DNA of 64,000 nt from a virus (taxonomy: Duplodnaviria; Heunggongvirae; Uroviricota; Caudoviricetes). Below, one piece after another: positions 22,155 to 44,380 of the stretch. The notes beneath the pieces were generated by a model. That model was given only the letters and a program-made list of their open reading frames with translations, was not told the origin of the DNA and made no database searches. The stretch lies in IMG/VR virus record IMGVR_UViG_3300050145_000014; one strand, given 5' to 3'. Position 1 is the stretch's first letter. Each line of letters begins with the position of its first letter. The position numbers and the translations under genes were made by a program.

Positions 22155-22230
22155 TGGTAGGAGCAATGGGAATCGAACCCATGTTAACTGCCTTATCTAG
22201 ACAGTGCTTAGGAGTTTATAAGGCTCCCCC
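22155..22230 (-). tRNA. tRNA, isotype undetermined (possible anticodon GAU)
   Basis: Reverse complement shows a canonical T-arm ATGGG-TTCGATT-CCCAT, acceptor ...TGCTCCTACCA with CCA encoded, and a D-arm CTTA/TAAG; the anticodon loop TAGATAA is non-canonical (A33) and the acceptor has one mismatch. Confidence 0.45.
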
Positions 22231-22262
22231 TTAGGCCAACATTAGCAATACTCCCGGATAAT

Positions 22263-22337
22263 TGGTAGGGCTGCAGGGCCAACGATCCCTGATCTGATGG
22301 TTAAAAGCCATCTGCTTCACCTTAAAGCTTCAACCCC
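22263..22337 (-). tRNA. tRNA-Lys (anticodon UUU)
   Basis: Acceptor GGGGTTG/CAGCCCT + A + CCA; D-arm GCTT-TAAGGTG-AAGC; anticodon arm GATGG-CTTTTAA-CCATC; the T-loop is unusual (8 nt). Confidence 0.65.
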
Positions 22338-30983: not shown

Positions 30984-31050
30984 CAACAGGGAGCCCTTGC
31001 GGGCTCCCTTCTTTCATGGTAGGATCAGAAATTATCTTGTGAGGAGGATT

Positions 31051-32677
31051 ATGGACCCGTTTGGTTTTGTATTTGACATTGAAGCAGATGCACTGTACCC
31101 TGCTGTCAGTAAAATTTGGTATCTAAGGGTAACAGACCTTCAGGATGACTCCAAATTCTTAAAATTGTACCTAGAAGAGTCTTTCATCATTGAACCTGAT
31201 TCTTCCTCTTTCTTCGGTGAAGAAGGTCTCTTGAAGTTTCAAGAGTTTGTTGAAGCTTACCCTGAAGGTTTCTTTGTTGTTGGTCATAATATCTTGCAGT
31301 ATGATGTATGGGTGTTGTGGAAACTCTGGGGCCTGCAACCATTCATTGGTAAAGGCTCCTCAGACTGGTTTATGAACCGTAAGTGCCAGTTCATTGATAC
31401 ACGTTACCTGTCGATGTTCCTAAACCCGGACTTGCCAGGACACTCCCTAGAGGATTGGGGGCAACGAGTCGGTGAACCTAAGATGGATTACCGAGGGAAG
31501 TTAGTTGAGATTGGCGTCATGACAGGCGCCGAACCAGATGGTTTTGAATTCTCTTTCTGGAATCATTGGATGCAGAAATATTGCGATCAGGACGTAAAGA
31601 CTAATAAGAAAATCTTCCGTAGGATGTGGGAGAAGTTTGTAGAGCTTTACCCTGAAGGTATTCCTGAATCATATAAAGTCTCTCAGAAGGGTTTCTTCCT
31701 TATGGGGGCCCAAGAATTCACAGGGTACTCATTCAATAAGGAATACGCTCTAGAGCTTGAGATTGAAATCACTGAAATGATCGAGGAGATTGCTAAGGAG
31801 ATTGAGCCTAAACTTCCTCCAAGACCTTTGAAGAAAGGTGAAGAGAAAGATTATACAATGCCCGCCAAACCTTTCAAGAAAGATGGTAGCTTGTCGAGCC
31901 ACATGCTTAACTTTATTGAGAAGCATAATGCAGAGTTCTTAGGTGAAGGCAAGATCAGAGTATTTGAACGAATTGAAGAGATTGAGTCTAAGAAGCTGCT
32001 TGATATGAAGGTTCCTATGGAATTGAAAGATCAATCTGCTTTGAAGGACTACTTTCTAGAACTTGGTTGGGAGCCTGTTTACTATAATTACCAGAAAGAC
32101 GACAAGAATAAATTTGTCCGTGATGACCGTGGCAAGCTAATCGAGACAACACCTAAACTTCAGGAAGCTGGTAAACTAGACCCTGGGCTTGAAGATCTTG
32201 TTGGGGACATCCCTAAGAAGGTTGTTAAGTATCTTTCTCTGCGTAATCGTCTAGGTGTTCTGCAAGGGTGGATCAATCACCCCCGTATTGCGTTAGATGG
32301 GAGACTCCCAGCAAGAGCCTCAAAGATTACAAACACCCACAGACAGGCTCATAGCACAGTCTGTAACGTCCCTAAAGCAGAAGAGCAGGTCCTATTTGGT
32401 AAACAGTTTAGAAGCTTGTTTAGAGCCGAGGAAGGGTTCCTGTTGGCTGCAGCAGATGCCGTGGCAGGGGAAAACTTCACTGAGGCGCATTACACGCTCC
32501 CTTACCCTGGTGGTGAAGAGTATGTGAATGACTTGCTTTCAGGTGATCCTCACATCAAGAACGCATGTATCTTTTATCCCGATAAAATGCGTGGAATTGA
32601 TATTACTGTCCCTGGTGTAAAGGATGACCCAAAGGTTAAGCCTTGGCGGAGTAAGTCGAAGAATGGTAAGTATGCGT
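31051..32677 (+). CDS. family-A DNA polymerase, exon 1 (3'-5' exonuclease and polymerase N-terminal region up to motif B)
   Basis: Exo I motif FDIEADA with the RBS GAGGAGGA upstream; ...LSGDPHIKNA ... RSKSKNGKYAL aligns to Pol I [11 protein letters not shown] (O-helix) up to the splice point. Confidence 0.8.
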
Positions 32678-32934
32678 TAATCTAGGCGCATGTAAAACAG
32701 ATTGAATTCAGGGAACACCCTAACGTAAAGTCGAGGGCAATCCTGAGCTAAGTTAAATAAGAGATGATCTTATTTAGAAAGTGCAACGACTATCCCTTTA
32801 CGGGAGTAGAGCTAAGTAGCTCGAAGCGGTCTGCTAGGCCTAAGAAGCCTAGGTGATATAGTCTGCTCTTGTAGGAAACTACAAGCTGTGTTAACTCACG
32901 GGAGAGGTGTTACGAGCCTCTTTGAACATAAAGG
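32678..32934 (+). mobile_element. group I intron (257 nt, no ORF) interrupting the DNA polymerase gene
   Basis: P1: exon ATGCGU pairs with the intron IGS GCGCAU, giving a U.G at the splice site; P7 R/S elements GTGCAACGACTATCCC (32781-96) and GGTGATATAGTCTG (32851-64); a terminal G at 32934; splicing restores ...KYALTFGCSAGKLAKTL (motif B) in frame. Confidence 0.75.
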
Positions 32935-33452
32935 TAACCTTCGGGTGTTCTGCAGGTAAATTAGCTAAGACTTTAGGTGTCCCAGAAGCACAGAGTAAAA
33001 TGCTCTACGCCAATTTCTGGGATGGTAATCCAGCCTTGAAGGCTTTGAAAGAAGCTGTAGAGAAATACTGGAGTACAAAAGGTAATAAGAAGTATCTCCC
33101 TGGGCTTGACGGTAGAATGCTTTGCACTCGGAGTCAGCACAGTCTTTTAAACGTACTATTTCAATCTGCTCTAGCTATTATTATGGATTATGCACTTGCT
33201 ATCATGGACAAGAAACTAGGTATTCTTTATCTTGATGATAAAGGGAGGCCTTATTATCTGTATAAGGGGTATATTGTGAGACGGGTTGCATATGTCCATG
33301 ATGAGGCAGCTTATGAGTCTGAAGATCCTATAGCAGAAGAGGTTTCACAAATGCTTGCGACATCTATTACTGAAGCGTCAAAGTACCTGAAACTACGAGT
33401 GTTGTTAAAAGGGGAGGGTAAAGTTGGTAAAAACTGGAAAGAAACTCATTGA
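32935..33452 (+). CDS. family-A DNA polymerase, exon 2 (motif B tail, motif C YVHDE, C-terminal KNWKETH)
   Basis: VAYVHDEAAYE and the terminal G.NW.E.H are hallmarks of the Pol I family. Confidence 0.8.
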
Positions 33453-33972
33453 TTCATTCCCCTGGGCGGGTATCTTAAAGTATGATGAGTCATCCTGTAC
33501 AGGGTTGAGGTGGGTATCCGGGAGGCGCTCCGGGAAAGAGGCTGGAGGTCTTGATAGGGATATTCGGAGAGGTAAATACTCAAGATATCGTATAGTTAAA
33601 TTCGGTCAACACTTTCTCGCTCATCGTATTATATGGTATCTCATCTATGGATCAATTGACTCACTAAAAGACATCGACCATATTGATGGGAATGCCTGTA
33701 ACAATAAAATCGAGAACCTCAGACTTATTGATAAAGATCTTAATAGAAGAAATAGTGCTAAAAGATCCGATAATAAGTCAGGTAAAACAGGGGTGCGGCA
33801 AATGAAAGATGGCTCTTGGGAAGCCTCTATAAAGTGTAACCATGAAAAGTATAGGGCTAGTTTCTCAGGTAAGGGGTCTTTTGAATCAGCTTGTTTGTGG
33901 AGAGACTCAATGCTAAAGAAACTAAATTCGGAGTTTTCTGCAGGATTCACTGACCGGCATGGTGTTGCATAA
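33424..33972 (+). CDS. free-standing HNH homing endonuclease with an AP2-like DNA-binding domain
   Basis: IDHIDGNACNNKIENLRL HNH motif; the second half (WEASIKCNHEKYRASFSG) resembles an AP2 domain. Confidence 0.75.
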   Translation: MVKTGKKLIDSFPWAGILKYDESSCTGLRWVSGRRSGKEAGGLDRDIRRGKYSRYRIVKFGQHFLAHRIIWYLIYGSIDSLKDIDHIDGNACNNKIENLRLIDKDLNRRNSAKRSDNKSGKTGVRQMKDGSWEASIKCNHEKYRASFSGKGSFESACLWRDSMLKKLNSEFSAGFTDRHGVA

Positions 33973-34851: not shown

Positions 34852-36558
34852 ATGTCTATTGCACTAAATCCAGCCCTGGCGTGTGACTTCTATAAGGTTG
34901 GTCACAAGTTCCAGTACCCAGAAGGTACGGAAATGATCTATAGTAATTTCACCCCGCGTTCAGCAAAGCTTTTCAAGAGCGAGAGTTTCAAAGGTGAAGT
35001 AACCAACTTTGGCCTGCAAGGTTTTGCTCGATGGTTCTTGATTGATCACTGGAATAACTACTTCTTCAACCTACCTAAGCAAATTGTTGTAGCCGAGTAT
35101 TCTCGTGTCGTGAACACTGCCCTGGGTATGGAAGTCCCTACTGATCACATTGAAGCCCTGCATGATCTAGGCTATCTCCCTGTTCAAATCAAGGCTCTCC
35201 CTGAAGGTGCTGGTGTCCCTATTAAGGTTCCTGTGTTCACTATTAAGAACACTGACAAACGTTTCTTCTGGCTAGTGAACTACATCGAAACTGTTCTGTC
35301 TTCAGATAACTGGAAGTCTATTACCAATGCAACTATTGCATTTGAATATCGTGTTCTCCTAGAGAAGTGGGCAGAAGTTACTGGTTCTCCAAAGGAATTT
35401 GTCCTGTGGCAGGGACACGATTTCTCTGCGCGTGGTATGTCTGGTATTTTTGATGCCACTGCCTCAGGTGCAGCGCACTTGACTAGCTTCCTGGGAACTG
35501 ATACAATCCCTTCGATTAACTACCTTGAAGCTTACTACGAGGGTCAGCAGACTTTTGTGGGTGGTTCAGTTCCTGCCAGTGAACACTCGGTCATTTGCGC
35601 TGGCGGTCAAGAATCTGAGATTGAAACCTTCCGTCGAATTCTGAAGACTTACCCTACTGGTGTTGTCAGTATCGTTTCTGACACATGGGATTTCTGGAAT
35701 GTTATCACCAATATGGCAACTGAACTCAAGTCTGAGATCATGTCTCGTCAACCTAATGCAATTGGTTTGGCAAAGACTGTCTTCCGTCCTGACTCTGGCG
35801 ATCCTGTGGAAATTCTGTGTGGTATTGAGATTCAGGAAGTTGAGAGTATCGAAGACGCAGAAGAAATCCTAAAAGACTCTGATGAGTGGGAAGATGGTGA
35901 AGACTATGGTCCTCAGGAGTTGTCAGGTGTTTTCCGAATTGATGGTCAAGTTATTGAAGTGACTGTAGCCCCTTGGTGGAATCGTCACGACAAGCGTTTC
36001 TATTACATTGATGGTTGGCAAGAAACTAAGTCTAAGGAAGTTACTCTGACTCCTGAACAAAAGGGCGCTGTAGAATGCCTGTGGGATATCTTCGGCGGTA
36101 CAGTGACTGACAAGGGCTTCAAGGTTCTAGATAGTCATGTTGGACTAATCTATGGCGACTCTATTACCCTAGAACGTGCTGATCAAATCATGTCACGTCT
36201 TGCAGCCAAGGGCTTTGCCTCTTGTAATGTTGTGTTTGGTATCGGTTCATATACTTATCAGTACAACACCCGTGATACTTTCGGTATGGCTATGAAAGCG
36301 ACTTATGCCATCGTGAATGCCGAAGGTCGTGAACTATTCAAAGACCCTAAGACCGATTCTGGTACTAAGAAGTCTGCTAAAGGTTTGCTACGAATTGAAC
36401 TGGAAGAGGGTAAGTACGTTCTGTATGACCAACAAACTCCAGAGCAAGAGGCTCAAGGTGAACTGAAGACTGTCTTCTGTGATGGTAAGATGTTTAACCA
36501 GCAGAGTATTATGGGTATCCGTGACCTTATCAATGATCGGATTGCTAAACAAGTCTAA
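34852..36558 (+). CDS. nadV: nicotinamide phosphoribosyltransferase (NAMPT/NadV) homolog with an approximately 90-aa insertion; could be a Namat-type enzyme
   Basis: N-terminal CDFYKVGHKFQYP and C-terminal FGIGSYTYQYNTRDTFGMAMKATY match the NAMPT family; 568 aa against about 480 typical. Confidence 0.75.
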   Translation: MSIALNPALACDFYKVGHKFQYPEGTEMIYSNFTPRSAKLFKSESFKGEVTNFGLQGFARWFLIDHWNNYFFNLPKQIVVAEYSRVVNTALGMEVPTDHIEALHDLGYLPVQIKALPEGAGVPIKVPVFTIKNTDKRFFWLVNYIETVLSSDNWKSITNATIAFEYRVLLEKWAEVTGSPKEFVLWQGHDFSARGMSGIFDATASGAAHLTSFLGTDTIPSINYLEAYYEGQQTFVGGSVPASEHSVICAGGQESEIETFRRILKTYPTGVVSIVSDTWDFWNVITNMATELKSEIMSRQPNAIGLAKTVFRPDSGDPVEILCGIEIQEVESIEDAEEILKDSDEWEDGEDYGPQELSGVFRIDGQVIEVTVAPWWNRHDKRFYYIDGWQETKSKEVTLTPEQKGAVECLWDIFGGTVTDKGFKVLDSHVGLIYGDSITLERADQIMSRLAAKGFASCNVVFGIGSYTYQYNTRDTFGMAMKATYAIVNAEGRELFKDPKTDSGTKKSAKGLLRIELEEGKYVLYDQQTPEQEAQGELKTVFCDGKMFNQQSIMGIRDLINDRIAKQV

Positions 36559-39199: not shown

Positions 39200-39273
39200 C
39201 TCTCCATAACTCAATTGGATAGAGTAACTCCCTTCTAAGGAGTAAGTTAGAGGTTCAAATCCTCTTGGAGAGA
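39200..39273 (+). tRNA. tRNA-Arg (anticodon UCU); 3' CCA not encoded
   Basis: Full cloverleaf read: acceptor CTCTCCA/TGGAGAG, D-arm ACTC-AATTGGATA-GAGT, anticodon arm ACTCC-CTTCTAA-GGAGT, T-arm AGAGG-TTCAAAT-CCTCT, discriminator A. Confidence 0.8.
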
Positions 39274-39306
39274 CTCAGGGCTTTACCTAATTTTAAAAGG
39301 AATTAT

Positions 39307-40247: not shown

Positions 40248-41249
40248 ATGACAGAAACAATTGCAGTATTTGACTATGACGCTATTGCTTTTCGGGCCGC
40301 AGCAGCTACAGAAAAGAAACAGATCAGAGCAGTACATAAGAAGTCCGGTGATGAAAAAGTCTTTAAGTCTAGAACAGAGTTATGGGGACACTGGAAAAAG
40401 AAAGAGGGTGGATGGTTAGCTGAACAGAGAAAATCAGGAATTGATGTAACCTGGGAAGACTACGATATCACTGATTTCTCTGAACCAGAACCTATTCAAA
40501 ATGCTATTCAGATTACAAAGAAACTAATCTCTACAGCAGTGTCTGATGTAAATGCTACAAACTACTATGGGTATATCGGTGGTGCAGAGAACTTCCGAAT
40601 TGAGAGGAGTACACTTATTAAGTACAAAGGACAACGTGATGACTTGGTTAAACCTAAGCACTTGGAAGATATAAAGAGATACATTCAAACGCACCATGCA
40701 GGAGAAATTGCAAAAGGTGTAGAGGCAGATGATCTTGTAGCTGGAGATGTTTATACTGGTTTTGTCAATAGTACTAGAGTTGTTGGGATAGGATTAGATA
40801 AAGACTATAAAGGTTGTGAAGGAATCTGGTGGAATTTTGTTAATAAGAAACTACTACATGTCAAAGGTCTAGGTGAACTCTTTAGAGATAAAGACGGTAA
40901 AGTGGATGGACATGGGAGGCTGTTTAAATACTGGCAGATTTGTTATGGCGACGATGCTGACAACTACTTCGCTGCTTGCGCATCTAGACACCCTAATGGC
41001 GAGGTTGCAGCGTATGATGCATTAAAGGGTGCCAAGACAGATAAGGAAGCTTGGGAGAAGATTGTTAAGCATTTCAAGAGGCTCTACCCTGAACCAACAA
41101 CTGTCACTGGATGGAGAGGTAGCCCTATCAAGATTGATTGGATGTATGTCCTTCAAGAGATGACTGACATGGCTCACATGCAAAGATGGGCTGGAGATTG
41201 TATCCATGTCAAGAGTGTCTTAGATAAATTAGGGGTCAGTTATGAGTGA
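40248..41249 (+). CDS. 5'-3' exonuclease / flap endonuclease (FEN family; T5 D15 / Pol I N-domain-like)
   Basis: FEN-like elements: IAVFDYDAIAFRAAAA (N-terminal), YKGQR (cf. YKANR), VEADDLVA (cf. EADDVIA), ICYGDDADN. Confidence 0.65.
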   Translation: MTETIAVFDYDAIAFRAAAATEKKQIRAVHKKSGDEKVFKSRTELWGHWKKKEGGWLAEQRKSGIDVTWEDYDITDFSEPEPIQNAIQITKKLISTAVSDVNATNYYGYIGGAENFRIERSTLIKYKGQRDDLVKPKHLEDIKRYIQTHHAGEIAKGVEADDLVAGDVYTGFVNSTRVVGIGLDKDYKGCEGIWWNFVNKKLLHVKGLGELFRDKDGKVDGHGRLFKYWQICYGDDADNYFAACASRHPNGEVAAYDALKGAKTDKEAWEKIVKHFKRLYPEPTTVTGWRGSPIKIDWMYVLQEMTDMAHMQRWAGDCIHVKSVLDKLGVSYE

Positions 41250-41745
41250 GAATCTGTACACAGTAAAAGACGTTCAACGTGTCAGAGAATTTCTTATTGA
41301 AGAACAGAGCAATATTGATGCCCTAACAGAGTTAGAGATCCTCCCAAAACAAGCTGTCTTAGATCACAGTCATGATACTCAATATGTCAGAGCAGTTATT
41401 TCAAGACAGGCTAATGCGTTCTTAGGTAAATTGGAAAACAACTTTGTCAGATATTTACGACATTGGTATCCTGAAACTCTTTCAACCTTCTTAAGAAAGG
41501 CAGCTAACTACCTTGAGAAACCGGATGACCAGCGATGGGTTCACCCAGGATGGATTAAGAAGGTAACAGCAGGCTTTAACAAGCTTCCAGAGGCTCAGAA
41601 AGACGTTGTTCTCCTCAACCTAGGGTACGAGAAGGGTAAGAACTCTACAGAGCGTAAAGCAACTTTTAAAACTCTTACATTAGATAGGTCTCTCGGGTAT
41701 GAGAAAGTCATCTCAGAGATAACTAAAGCTGCATTAAGAGCTTGA
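41242..41745 (+). CDS. hypothetical protein (167 aa)
   Basis: ORF, ATGA-coupled. Confidence 0.4.
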   Translation: MSENLYTVKDVQRVREFLIEEQSNIDALTELEILPKQAVLDHSHDTQYVRAVISRQANAFLGKLENNFVRYLRHWYPETLSTFLRKAANYLEKPDDQRWVHPGWIKKVTAGFNKLPEAQKDVVLLNLGYEKGKNSTERKATFKTLTLDRSLGYEKVISEITKAALRA

Positions 41746-41768: not shown

Positions 41769-41951
41769 ATGCTGAACATCAAAATCAAACAATGCAGGGA
41801 TCACCTCTTGTGGTACTCTACAAGAATCGGTGAAGTTTTTAAAATCGTAAAAGTAGATCACATAGAAGATTGGTATTGGGTTAGGACAGGTGGAGAGTAT
41901 AATACTCTAAACTTTGTCCATGCCTATGACTGTGATCTTTTATCAAATTGA
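41769..41951 (+). CDS. hypothetical small protein
   Basis: ORF 41742..41951; ATG at 41769. Confidence 0.35.
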   Translation: MLNIKIKQCRDHLLWYSTRIGEVFKIVKVDHIEDWYWVRTGGEYNTLNFVHAYDCDLLSN

Positions 41952-41962
41952 AAGGAAATCAA

Positions 41963-42487
41963 ATGCTTCATACCCCTCCCCACAAAGCTGCAGCTAATAA
42001 GTACGTTGGCGTAGCTATTTCTATGTCAACTCTATGGGCTGACACGCTTGCCTTTAATCGAATCAATGGTCAACTTCAAGACCTTACAAAAGAAGGTTTT
42101 AAGAAGCAGTTAGGTTTTATCCAATCAGAGCTTAAGGAACTTGCTGATGGGCTAGAGGCTAACGACAAAGTTGAACAACTTGACGGCTGTATTGATGTCC
42201 TTGTCACAACAATGGGCTATATGCAACGAATGGCTGAAGCCTATGGTTGTGACTTAGCTCAAGCCGCTGACCTTGTTGGTGCAAACAACCTCTCTAAGTT
42301 TCCTTCGAGTATGGAGGTTGCTATGCAATCCGTGCCTTATTACAAGGCGAAGGGGATTCCTGTAGAAGTCAGGGTTAACGAAGCCTATAATGTCTGGGTT
42401 GTTCGTAATACAGATACAGGCAAGGTAATGAAGCCTGTAGACTATGTTTCTGTAGACCTATCAAAGTGCTTCCCAACTTTGCAGTGA
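41963..42487 (+). CDS. MazG-like all-alpha NTP pyrophosphohydrolase
   Basis: SELKELADGLEANDKVEQLDGCIDVLV carries an EE..E..D-type metal-binding pattern; ATG at 41963 after AAAGGAAATCAA. Confidence 0.55.
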   Translation: MLHTPPHKAAANKYVGVAISMSTLWADTLAFNRINGQLQDLTKEGFKKQLGFIQSELKELADGLEANDKVEQLDGCIDVLVTTMGYMQRMAEAYGCDLAQAADLVGANNLSKFPSSMEVAMQSVPYYKAKGIPVEVRVNEAYNVWVVRNTDTGKVMKPVDYVSVDLSKCFPTLQ

Positions 42488-42494
42488 GGTGCTT

Positions 42495-42872
42495 ATGTCA
42501 ACAGGGAAACCAGTAAATCCTTGGAACCCTTTTCCAATTCCTGAGTTCAAGAGAGAGGTGCAGGTAACTAAATATGATTCAGGTAAGCCTCAGTTCGACC
42601 TGATACCTGCAAAAGCCCTGGAAAAAGTTGCAGAGCTTCTTACCCTAAATCTCAAGAAGTACCCTGACCGAGATAATTGGAAGAAGCTTGAGAACAATAA
42701 GGAAAGGTTCTTCCAGTCTCTTTTGAGACATATCAATAAACACCAACAAGGTGAACTTTATGACAAAGAGTCTCTTGACCCAACTACGCTGCATCTAACT
42801 GCAATTATTACAAATGCATTATTCTTACTAGAGATGCAGGTAAACCCGGACTACAATAAAGGATTAGAATAA
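42495..42872 (+). CDS. protein resembling the N-terminal domain of dATP/dGTP diphosphohydrolase (dGTP_diPhyd_N-like)
   Basis: KPQFDLIPAKALEKVAELL ... LHLTAIITNALFLLE pattern recalled for that family. Confidence 0.45.
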   Translation: MSTGKPVNPWNPFPIPEFKREVQVTKYDSGKPQFDLIPAKALEKVAELLTLNLKKYPDRDNWKKLENNKERFFQSLLRHINKHQQGELYDKESLDPTTLHLTAIITNALFLLEMQVNPDYNKGLE

Positions 42873-42873
42873 T

Positions 42874-43986
42874 ATGGAAGTTAAATTAGTAGGATATACA
42901 CAACCATCCGAGGAATTCAAGGGTGATTTCAGTTCAGTAAAAGATCTAATTGCCTATTGTGCAAGAGTGAGTAATCCTAGTAATCAATTTAATACTGAAA
43001 CTACAGACAAGTTAATTAGCTACCTACTCAAGCATAAGCATTTCTCCCCATTTGAAATGGCTAGTGCAACTATCGAGATTACAACTACACGAGATATTGC
43101 ACGGCAAATTCTACGCCATCGTAGTTTCACTTTTCAGGAGTTTTGTATTGCAGGTGATTCTAAAATCACGACACTTGCAAAAAGCGGAAGATCAAAAAAA
43201 ATACAGATTAGAGACCTCTATGAAAGGTACTCAAATAAAGTAAATTGGGATAAGTCAGATAATCTTGTAAGAGTGTTTGATGAAGCTTCTAAGACGTTTG
43301 TACCAGTGAAAATCAAAGAGGTTTTCAAGACAGGTGTGAAGCCTGTTTATGAACTTATTCTTGAGAACGGTAAAAAGGTTATCTCAACTAAGGAGCATAA
43401 ATTCCTCTCTCGTAGGGGGTTTTTACCTTTAGAGGATCTATACGATGATGATTTCATTGGATGCAGTGTTGTGTCTGTTTATCAGCCTGTCTGGAGTAAG
43501 ATAAAGAGTATCAAGTTTAAAGGTTTTGAGGAAACCTATGACATGGAGGTTGAGCATTCATCACACAACTATATTGCAAACGGGGTTGTTACTCATAACA
43601 GTCAAAGATACGCCGATCCTCGGCAATTAGGTTTTGTTATTCGTGAAACCCGTCTACAGGATTTGAAGAATCGTCAGAATAGTATCGGACTAGATCCTCT
43701 AGATATTGATGGCTATAATCTTGATCAAGAGTGGAAACGACGCCAACAAGAAGTCCTAGATATTGTCAAGGAAAACTACGCATGGGCTATTGAAAACAAT
43801 ATTGCCAAGGAACAAGCCCGAGCAATCCTCCCTGAAGGTAATACAGTTTCTCGTATGTACATGCAAGGGACTATCCGTAGTTTTATTCATTACATTGAAC
43901 TTCGCCGTGAAGAGGGTACCCAGAGAGAACACCAAGATGTTGCGATTGCTGTAGGTAAAGCTATCAGTAAAATCTTCCCTGTATAA
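42874..43986 (+). CDS. thyX: flavin-dependent thymidylate synthase ThyX, interrupted by a mini-intein
   Basis: ThyX signature RHRSFTFQEF | intein | SQRY (RHR-X7-S motif split exactly at the insertion). Confidence 0.8.
   Translation: MEVKLVGYTQPSEEFKGDFSSVKDLIAYCARVSNPSNQFNTETTDKLISYLLKHKHFSPFEMASATIEITTTRDIARQILRHRSFTFQEFCIAGDSKITTLAKSGRSKKIQIRDLYERYSNKVNWDKSDNLVRVFDEASKTFVPVKIKEVFKTGVKPVYELILENGKKVISTKEHKFLSRRGFLPLEDLYDDDFIGCSVVSVYQPVWSKIKSIKFKGFEETYDMEVEHSSHNYIANGVVTHNSQRYADPRQLGFVIRETRLQDLKNRQNSIGLDPLDIDGYNLDQEWKRRQQEVLDIVKENYAWAIENNIAKEQARAILPEGNTVSRMYMQGTIRSFIHYIELRREEGTQREHQDVAIAVGKAISKIFPV
43144..43599 (+). mobile_element. mini-intein (152 aa, Hint domain only, no homing endonuclease domain) inside thyX
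   Basis: Begins CIAGDSKI (block A), has TKEHKF (block B), ends DMEVEHSSHNYIANGVVTHN (blocks F/G) followed by the +1 Ser of SQRY. Confidence 0.8.
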
Positions 43987-44050: not shown

Positions 44051-44380
44051 ATGCTAAAAATTATTGCGTTATCATATATCAGCGAGTCAGAAATTAAAAA
44101 AGTAGAACCGGACTTCAATGCGTCAAAAGGTGATCCAGCTTTAGAGTCGAGGTTGTATGACCTAGGTCTTGACTTTGCACGCGGGTACGAGGAACAATCA
44201 ACGATTCATCGAAACCGTTTCAACGAAGTTGTAGAATGCAAGCGTTGGGTAGGTAATGAGCGAACAGATAAGACATGGGTTACCTCAGGCTATGCTTCAA
44301 TTGAGGCGATTGATAAAGCTAGTGGTAATCGTTTAATTACTGATCTGTACCATCAAAAGGGTATGGTTGAATCGGAGTAA
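44051..44380 (+). CDS. hypothetical protein (109 aa) upstream of nrdB
   Basis: ORF with the RBS AAGAGGAG. Confidence 0.4.
   Translation: MLKIIALSYISESEIKKVEPDFNASKGDPALESRLYDLGLDFARGYEEQSTIHRNRFNEVVECKRWVGNERTDKTWVTSGYASIEAIDKASGNRLITDLYHQKGMVESE

Follow-up and report, generated by a model that had tools for sequence, protein, structure and literature searches.

An intein in the flavin-dependent thymidylate synthase ThyX has been described in the cyanobacterium Trichodesmium erythraeum IMS101 (Liu & Yang 2004, J Bacteriol 186:6316, as cited in PMC4649490). Known as the Ter ThyX intein, it is able to splice in E. coli, and when reduced by engineering to a mini form of ~170 aa without the endonuclease it still splices at ~100% (PMC3620165). 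Two ThyX inteins are also catalogued in the cluster C1 mycobacteriophages (Kelley et al. 2016, PMC5050341), and among deposited phage genomes ThyX inteins are found in the Mycobacterium phages Colt (gp83), Blubba, Cane17 and StAugustine as well as in a Methanomassiliicoccales virus. The part of the enzyme that concerns us here is the RHR-X7-S motif, the RHR of which contacts FAD and dUMP in the solved ThyX structures (PMC6514825). In this paper, we analyse a ThyX intein encoded in a 64,000-nt stretch of DNA (the window) from an uncultured tailed phage. We consider the 152 residues encoded at positions 43144-43599 of the + strand to be a canonical class-1 mini-intein that consists of the Hint splicing domain only and is predicted to splice, and we put the probability of this reading at about 0.9.

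Both the Ter ThyX intein and the intein in the window reside in ThyX, and the former is a direct precedent for a functional ThyX mini-intein; however, the Ter intein, which has an endonuclease domain by nature, lies on a cyanobacterial chromosome, whereas the one described here belongs to a phage and is naturally mini. A scan of species-representative genomes with the junction patterns of the window intein returned no Trichodesmium. The inteins of the cluster C1 mycobacteriophages and of Caudoviricetes sp. vir335 resemble the window intein in that they lie within the ThyX motif, are of class-1 type, start with Cys and end with His-Asn before a Ser, and they show a weak but significant similarity to it (28-29% identity, E 2e-4 to 3e-6). 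Their insertion points are different, though: the Colt junction (L002, 37891-39357) reads RHRSGF|C...HN|SYNEESGRY, five residues upstream of the point used in the window, and the vir335 junction (L003, 77747-79231) reads RHRLASY|C...HN|SQQSQRY, three residues upstream of it. Moreover, the Colt and vir335 inteins are not mini-inteins, since they are ~280-300 aa long and contain an HNH-like region, in contrast to the 152 aa of the window intein. Thus the 14-residue ThyX motif harbours at least three intein insertion points (RHRSGF|SYNEES, RHRLASY|SQQS and FQEF|SQRY), with a serine as the +1 nucleophile in each. For the protein-engineering toolkit, candidates could be sought among natural Ser+1 mini-inteins that are related to the efficient Ter ThyX intein.

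The thyX precursor ORF, as given in the list of ORFs, spans positions 42874-43986 of the + strand (stop codon at 43984-43986) and encodes 370 aa including the intein. The flanks of the insert match the Pfam Thy1 profile (PF02511; E 1e-34, 120.5 bits, cutoff 24.8) and the TIGR02170 thyX profile (E 5.7e-34, 117.5 bits, cutoff 87.9), the match being split in two by the insert in both cases, and by these profile matches the product is ThyX. The N-extein (42874-43143; ThyX residues 1-90), which ends in RHRSFTFQEF, aligns to residues 1-87 of the ThyX of PBCV-1 (2cfa), and its RHR codons, read directly from the sequence, lie at 43114-43122 (residues 81-83); a motif search found RHR in 116 of the 120 relatives listed. 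The C-extein (43600-43983), corresponding to residues 91-218 of the spliced ThyX, covers positions 82-191 of the Thy1 profile and aligns to the remainder of 2cfa. In the ORF translation the precursor reads ...ILRHRSFTFQEF, then CIAGDSKITTL...NYIANGVVTHN, then SQRYADP, and the product text upstream of the insert is given as ...DIARQILRHRSFTFQEF, then CIAGDSKITTL. Excision of residues 91-242 yields a protein of 218 aa, which aligns end to end with PBCV-1 ThyX (E 1e-50) without a gap at the junction, the PBCV-1 enzyme running uninterrupted across the splice point as RHRSFHFQEFSQRYA. After the excision RHR-X7-S(-x-R-Y) is contiguous, in the form RHRSFTFQEFSQRY, the counterpart of which in PBCV-1 ThyX is RHRSFHFQEFSQRY. 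Because this alignment is gapless across the splice point, the first residue of the C-extein, Ser+1 (43600-43602, by direct reading), is the conserved serine of the RHR-X7-S motif. The claim of an earlier reading based on the sequence only (the sequence-only reading), that the insertion falls within RHR-X7-S and that its removal restores the ThyX motif, is thereby borne out: the insertion point lies exactly before the serine, and the joined exteins are colinear with the PBCV-1 enzyme.

The insert occupies residues 91-242 of the precursor, between Phe90 and the motif serine. Its coordinates, 43144-43599, and its length of 152 aa had been given exactly by the sequence-only reading, and the sequence itself shows, as that reading had it, a Cys at the start (codon 43144-43146) and His-Asn at the end (Asn152 codon 43597-43599), followed by Ser (codon 43600-43602). 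The intein blocks A, B (TKEHKF), F and G (THN) were likewise found as described there. Cys1, the block A nucleophile (43144-43146), is invariant in an alignment of 20 sequences and in all of the 104 inteins inserted at the same site that are described below. Block B, T82-K-E-H85 (TxxH; 43387-43398), has T82 and H85 invariant and aligned with the TxxH of the Npu and Ssp DnaB inteins, and block F, D133...H141-N-Y (43540-43566), has D133, H141, N142 and Y143 invariant and aligned with 'FDLTVPGLHNF' of the Npu DnaB intein. Block G, His151-Asn152 (43594-43599), which forms the C-terminal splice junction, is also invariant and is covered by the TIGR01443 match. The catalytic residues of a class-1 intein (C1, T82, H85, D133, H141, H151 and N152) are therefore all present and invariant in the relatives, with Ser at +1. 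Inteins of class 3, as Tori and Perler reportedly defined them, have no requirement for Cys1 or Ser1 and use a Trp-Cys-Thr triad in which the block F Cys is the first nucleophile; this class was rejected for the window intein, which has Cys1 and, in block F, Asp133 at the position of the Cys.

Profile searches for a Hint domain, which the sequence-only reading had proposed as a check, all matched the insert: Pfam Intein_splicing (PF14890) at E 5.5e-16 (59 bits, cutoff 35.8), TIGR01445 intein_Nterm at E 1.2e-10 and TIGR01443 intein_Cterm at E 5.8e-5. The best sequence match of the insert in the PDB was the DnaB intein of Nostoc punctiforme (Npu; 4o1r, E 1e-14), and such matches are far beyond chance. 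An AF2 model of the insert, computed from an input alignment of 20 relatives, is nearly all beta and has a mean pLDDT of 93.9 and a pTM of 0.86, with no low-confidence segment. When this model was compared with the PDB by Foldseek, 66 matches were obtained at E<=1e-3, and the listed top 50 were all intein or Hint-type domains, led by the Npu DnaB intein 4o1r (E 6e-13, TM 0.84/0.90, rmsd 2.1 A) and followed by the Ssp DnaB, Mtu RecA, DnaX, NrdJ-1 and DnaE inteins. The Hint fold, on which the sequence-only reading had staked its assignment, is thus present in the model. The Npu and Ssp DnaB mini-inteins (4o1r and 1mi8) are the closest solved inteins (E 1e-14, 31% identity, TM 0.84-0.90, rmsd 2.1 A) and have block B, F and G residues in common with the window intein, but their host protein is the DnaB helicase, and the Ssp mini-intein is engineered whereas that in the window arose by natural deletion.

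No nuclease family of Pfam or NCBIfam matched the 152-aa insert at E<=1, and all parts of the insert align with splicing-domain residues of its relatives. Blocks B and F thus have no homing-endonuclease domain between them, in agreement with what had been read from the sequence, and a segment of 179 aa with helix-turn-helix (HTH) and HNH features, found in the intein of the closest relative, is missing here. Taken with the Hint fold, Cys1 and TxxH, the block F Asp and His, the terminal His-Asn before Ser+1 and the existence of colinear intein-free homologues, this places the insert among the class-1 mini-inteins.

The closest relative, P0002, is encoded on contig L001 (NCBI assembly GCA_013565655.1), where the locus is syntenic with that of the window (the upstream gene, thyX, a 109-aa ORF and nrdB) and the alignable DNA is roughly 85-90% identical, as judged by eye. 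The P0002 intein is 331 aa long, its splicing parts are 92% identical to the window intein, and the sole difference in length within the intein is an in-frame segment of 537 nt (179 codons) found in L001 only. This segment lies between ...VPVYQS and TWSKVKSI in L001, where the window reads ...VSVYQP|VWSKIKSI; the alignments of both DNA and protein to L001/P0002 accordingly show the scar of an endonuclease deletion at nt 43488/43489, where Pro115 meets Val116 (codons 43486-43491, + strand). The 179-aa segment contains an HTH-like stretch and an HNH motif, and its match to Pfam HNH (E 1.1e-3, 19.4 bits) falls below the cutoff of 21.4; other relatives show NUMOD3 or full HNH matches, and many alleles at the same site carry a precomputed PF01844 domain. 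Since a syntenic allele has a 92%-identical intein plus this HTH/HNH segment, the window mini-intein is best explained by an in-frame deletion of the endonuclease: the ancestor would have been a full-length intein with an HTH/HNH homing endonuclease, which was lost by a deletion of 537 nt. With its endonuclease lost, the element is predicted to be unable to home by itself. It would nevertheless persist, because an imprecise loss of the intein would destroy thyX and only a precise removal would keep the gene intact. No very close intein-free allele of this phage lineage was recovered among the relatives. The two cores being 92% identical and separated by a single in-frame deletion, the window/L001 pair makes a young and clean case of homing-endonuclease loss.

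The distribution of the insertion among homologues puts this case in perspective. At the identical point, RHRSF.FQEF|C...HN|SQRY, an insert is present in 104 of the 120 best relatives in the protein collection, and the lengths are bimodal: 21 inserts are mini (145-224 aa), one has 259 aa and 82 have 314-379 aa, many of the long ones with a precomputed Pfam HNH domain. These metagenomic inteins (P0002-P0119; L004-L016) share the insertion point of the window intein and have homologous splicing domains, but they are mostly 314-379 aa long, many with HNH, whereas the window intein is without the 179-aa segment. Among the remaining relatives of the best 120, 15 (within P0101-P0120) show the empty site RHRSF.FQEF-SQRY, and about 30 viral loci in IMG/VR have the empty site RHRSFSFQEF|SQRYADP. 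The nearest ThyX proteins from isolates, those of Limnohabitans phage DC31, Curvibacter phage P26059A and Methylophilales phage Melnitz, are also intein-free. When species-representative genomes were scanned with the junction patterns, 10 loci in metagenome-assembled genomes (MAGs) were found, 8 of which have a clean same-site intein junction; the bins are labelled Geobacteraceae, Chlorobiaceae, Alphaproteobacteria, Gracilibacteria, Vulcanimicrobiota/Baltobacteraceae and two unclassified bacteria, and some of the contigs may be phage or prophage DNA. A protein identical to the 370-aa product (P0001) occurs on 15 environmental contigs from several samples, the longest of 84 kb, and the window DNA is from a circulating phage and is not an assembly artefact. 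No match to the thyX gene was obtained when 50,697 phage records were searched by megablast.

Mini-inteins are scattered among the HNH-bearing inteins at this site, and the nearest neighbour of 11 of the 21 is a full-length intein. In a second pair of a mini and a full-length intein, P0003/P0004, the cores are 95% identical and the end points of the deletion differ from those of the window's pair. Since so many of the mini-inteins neighbour full-length ones and the deletion end points differ, the alignments indicate that the endonuclease was lost repeatedly and independently, as the homing-cycle model predicts; these at least 11 mini-inteins with a full-length nearest relative, together with the window/L001 pair, illustrate the homing cycle in phage populations. 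The window mini-intein is, then, a real but ordinary member of a family of ThyX inteins that is known and is common in metagenomes. It had been singled out as a clean example of a mini-intein precisely within the dUMP/FAD-binding motif, ThyX inteins being known in a few phages and archaea; this overstates how special it is, given that 104 of the 120 best relatives have an intein at the same site and 21 of these 104 are mini. That a nucleotide-metabolism enzyme has an intein in an active-site motif, or that a mini-intein is natural, would not surprise a specialist, and the current understanding is unchallenged by this one. The main value of the finding is one of annotation: the 370-aa product is the precursor of a ThyX, its residues 91-242 being an intein, and not a novel fusion protein.

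The residues described above allow a course of splicing to be proposed. The translation product would be a precursor with a computed mass of 42.9 kDa, in which the 17.5-kDa Hint domain parts Phe90 from the motif serine. In the first step, an N-S acyl shift would take place at Cys1, helped by T82 and H85 of block B. In the second, Ser+1, the serine of the ThyX motif, would attack the thioester, and this trans-esterification would give a branched intermediate. Cyclisation of Asn152, helped by H151 and by D133 and H141 of block F, would then release the intein, and a final O-N shift would make the peptide bond native, the resulting ThyX of 25.4 kDa having its RHRSFTFQEFSQRY motif intact. The computed masses of the two products agree with the sizes of about 25 kDa for ThyX and 17 kDa for the intein that had been estimated beforehand. 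With its FAD/dUMP-binding motif split by the insert, the precursor would be expected to have no activity before splicing, and it is a sound inference that active ThyX depends on splicing.

The rates of substitution between the window and L001 bear on how the intein is maintained. The dN/dS ratio is 0.054 for the splicing domain (dS 1.1), 0.018 for the N-extein and 0.092 for the C-extein, and the low value in the splicing domain argues that the splicing function is under purifying selection. Such selection on an intein kept without an endonuclease, within the active-site motif of a nucleotide-metabolism enzyme, could mean that the element is not merely a selfish remnant but has been retained as a conditional post-translational switch, which would time or gate the synthesis of dTMP during infection in response to, for example, redox state, temperature, substrate or the nucleotide pool. 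Conditional splicing has been proposed for other inteins in active sites, and a switch, if real, would explain both the repeated origin of the mini versions and the strength of the purifying selection. We nevertheless judge such a role improbable. The need for a functional thyX by itself leads one to expect purifying selection on the splicing residues; nothing regulatory, for instance a cysteine near the junctions that could form a disulfide trap, was identified; and the intein is sporadic, as many close ThyX relatives are without it.

The same ratios also weigh against the idea, which we hold to be slightly less probable still, that the insert is a decayed and splicing-dead Hint remnant, so that thyX would be a pseudogene or ThyX would tolerate the insertion. 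In the homing cycle the loss of the endonuclease is indeed the stage that precedes decay, and the splicing of the window intein is a prediction from its residues and fold. However, the class-1 catalytic residues are all intact and invariant, the dN/dS of the splicing domain is similar to those of the exteins, all 370 codons are open and the identical protein recurs on the 15 contigs; and tolerance of the unspliced form is implausible, because the insert splits the FAD/dUMP-binding motif. A canonical mini-intein therefore remains the favoured reading. That the insert might be a bacterial intein-like (BIL) or Hedgehog-type Hint domain, or the locus an assembly chimera, has next to no probability: BIL domains do share the Hint fold, and one BIL2 structure appears at Foldseek rank 42, but they typically have neither a His-Asn end with a nucleophilic +1 residue nor a conserved insertion site, whereas the best structural and sequence matches here are true inteins, the insert ends in His-Asn before a nucleophilic Ser at a conserved site with an empty form in homologues (the catalytic residues and junction features on which the BIL assignment was rejected), and independent assemblies from several samples gave the same sequence.

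The GC content of the intein (0.366) equals that of the N-extein (0.367), and the composition thus gives no signal of a recent arrival, so a recent horizontal transfer judged by composition was dropped. A hidden Markov model (HMM) of the 104 same-site inteins, which is blind to unrelated intein families, found no second copy of the family in the six-frame translation of the window, its only match being the thyX ORF, and a Pfam scan of the large ORFs of the window found no intein domains.

The window is part of the genome of a tailed phage, in which thyX lies in a block of nucleotide-metabolism genes. Directly upstream of thyX on the + strand are a MazG-like ORF (41948-42487; a weak PRA-PH match) and a dATP/dGTP diphosphohydrolase-like ORF (42489-42872; PF18909, E 7.9e-24). 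No PurZ-like gene was seen among the window ORFs tested, and there is thus no evidence for a modified-base pathway. Downstream of thyX follow a conserved 109-aa ORF and the genes for the small and large subunits of ribonucleotide reductase. Situated between thyX and nrdB, the 109-aa ORF (44051-44380, +) has counterparts in L001 and L014; Pfam gave no match for it, but phrog_3506, annotated 'thymidylate synthase', matches at E 3.5e-11. Further upstream of thyX are genes for a DnaB-like helicase, a DNA polymerase, a NAMPT-like enzyme and an endonuclease VII, and the opposite strand carries tail genes, including that of a tape-measure protein of 2013 aa. The endonuclease VII-like ORF (41242-41745) was considered as a trans-acting homing nuclease and rejected, its best match being phrog_423 endonuclease VII and nothing linking it to the intein.

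A group I intron was detected at 32594-32885 on the + strand (Rfam RF00028, 64.8 bits, E 3.6e-14), where it appears to split the gene of the phage DNA polymerase; judged from its profile match, it would be a second self-splicing element in this phage genome. The ORFs around it are 30997-32685, 32907-33452 and 33424-33972. The ORF upstream of the intron corresponds to positions 674-1073 of phrog_17 and the one downstream to positions 1074-1233, and directly downstream follows an ORF for a free-standing HNH endonuclease (phrog_99, E 7e-39). In addition, the phage has genes for tRNA-Lys(ttt) and tRNA-Arg(tct), the regions concerned being 22158-22337 (-) and 39200-39274 (+), and a third, longer Rfam tRNA match at 22158-22255 was not called by ARAGORN. 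Finally, the ORF at 34852-36558 (+) encodes a nicotinamide/nicotinate phosphoribosyltransferase-like protein, with matches to NAPRTase (1.2e-38) and NAMPT_N, and would represent an auxiliary gene for NAD salvage.
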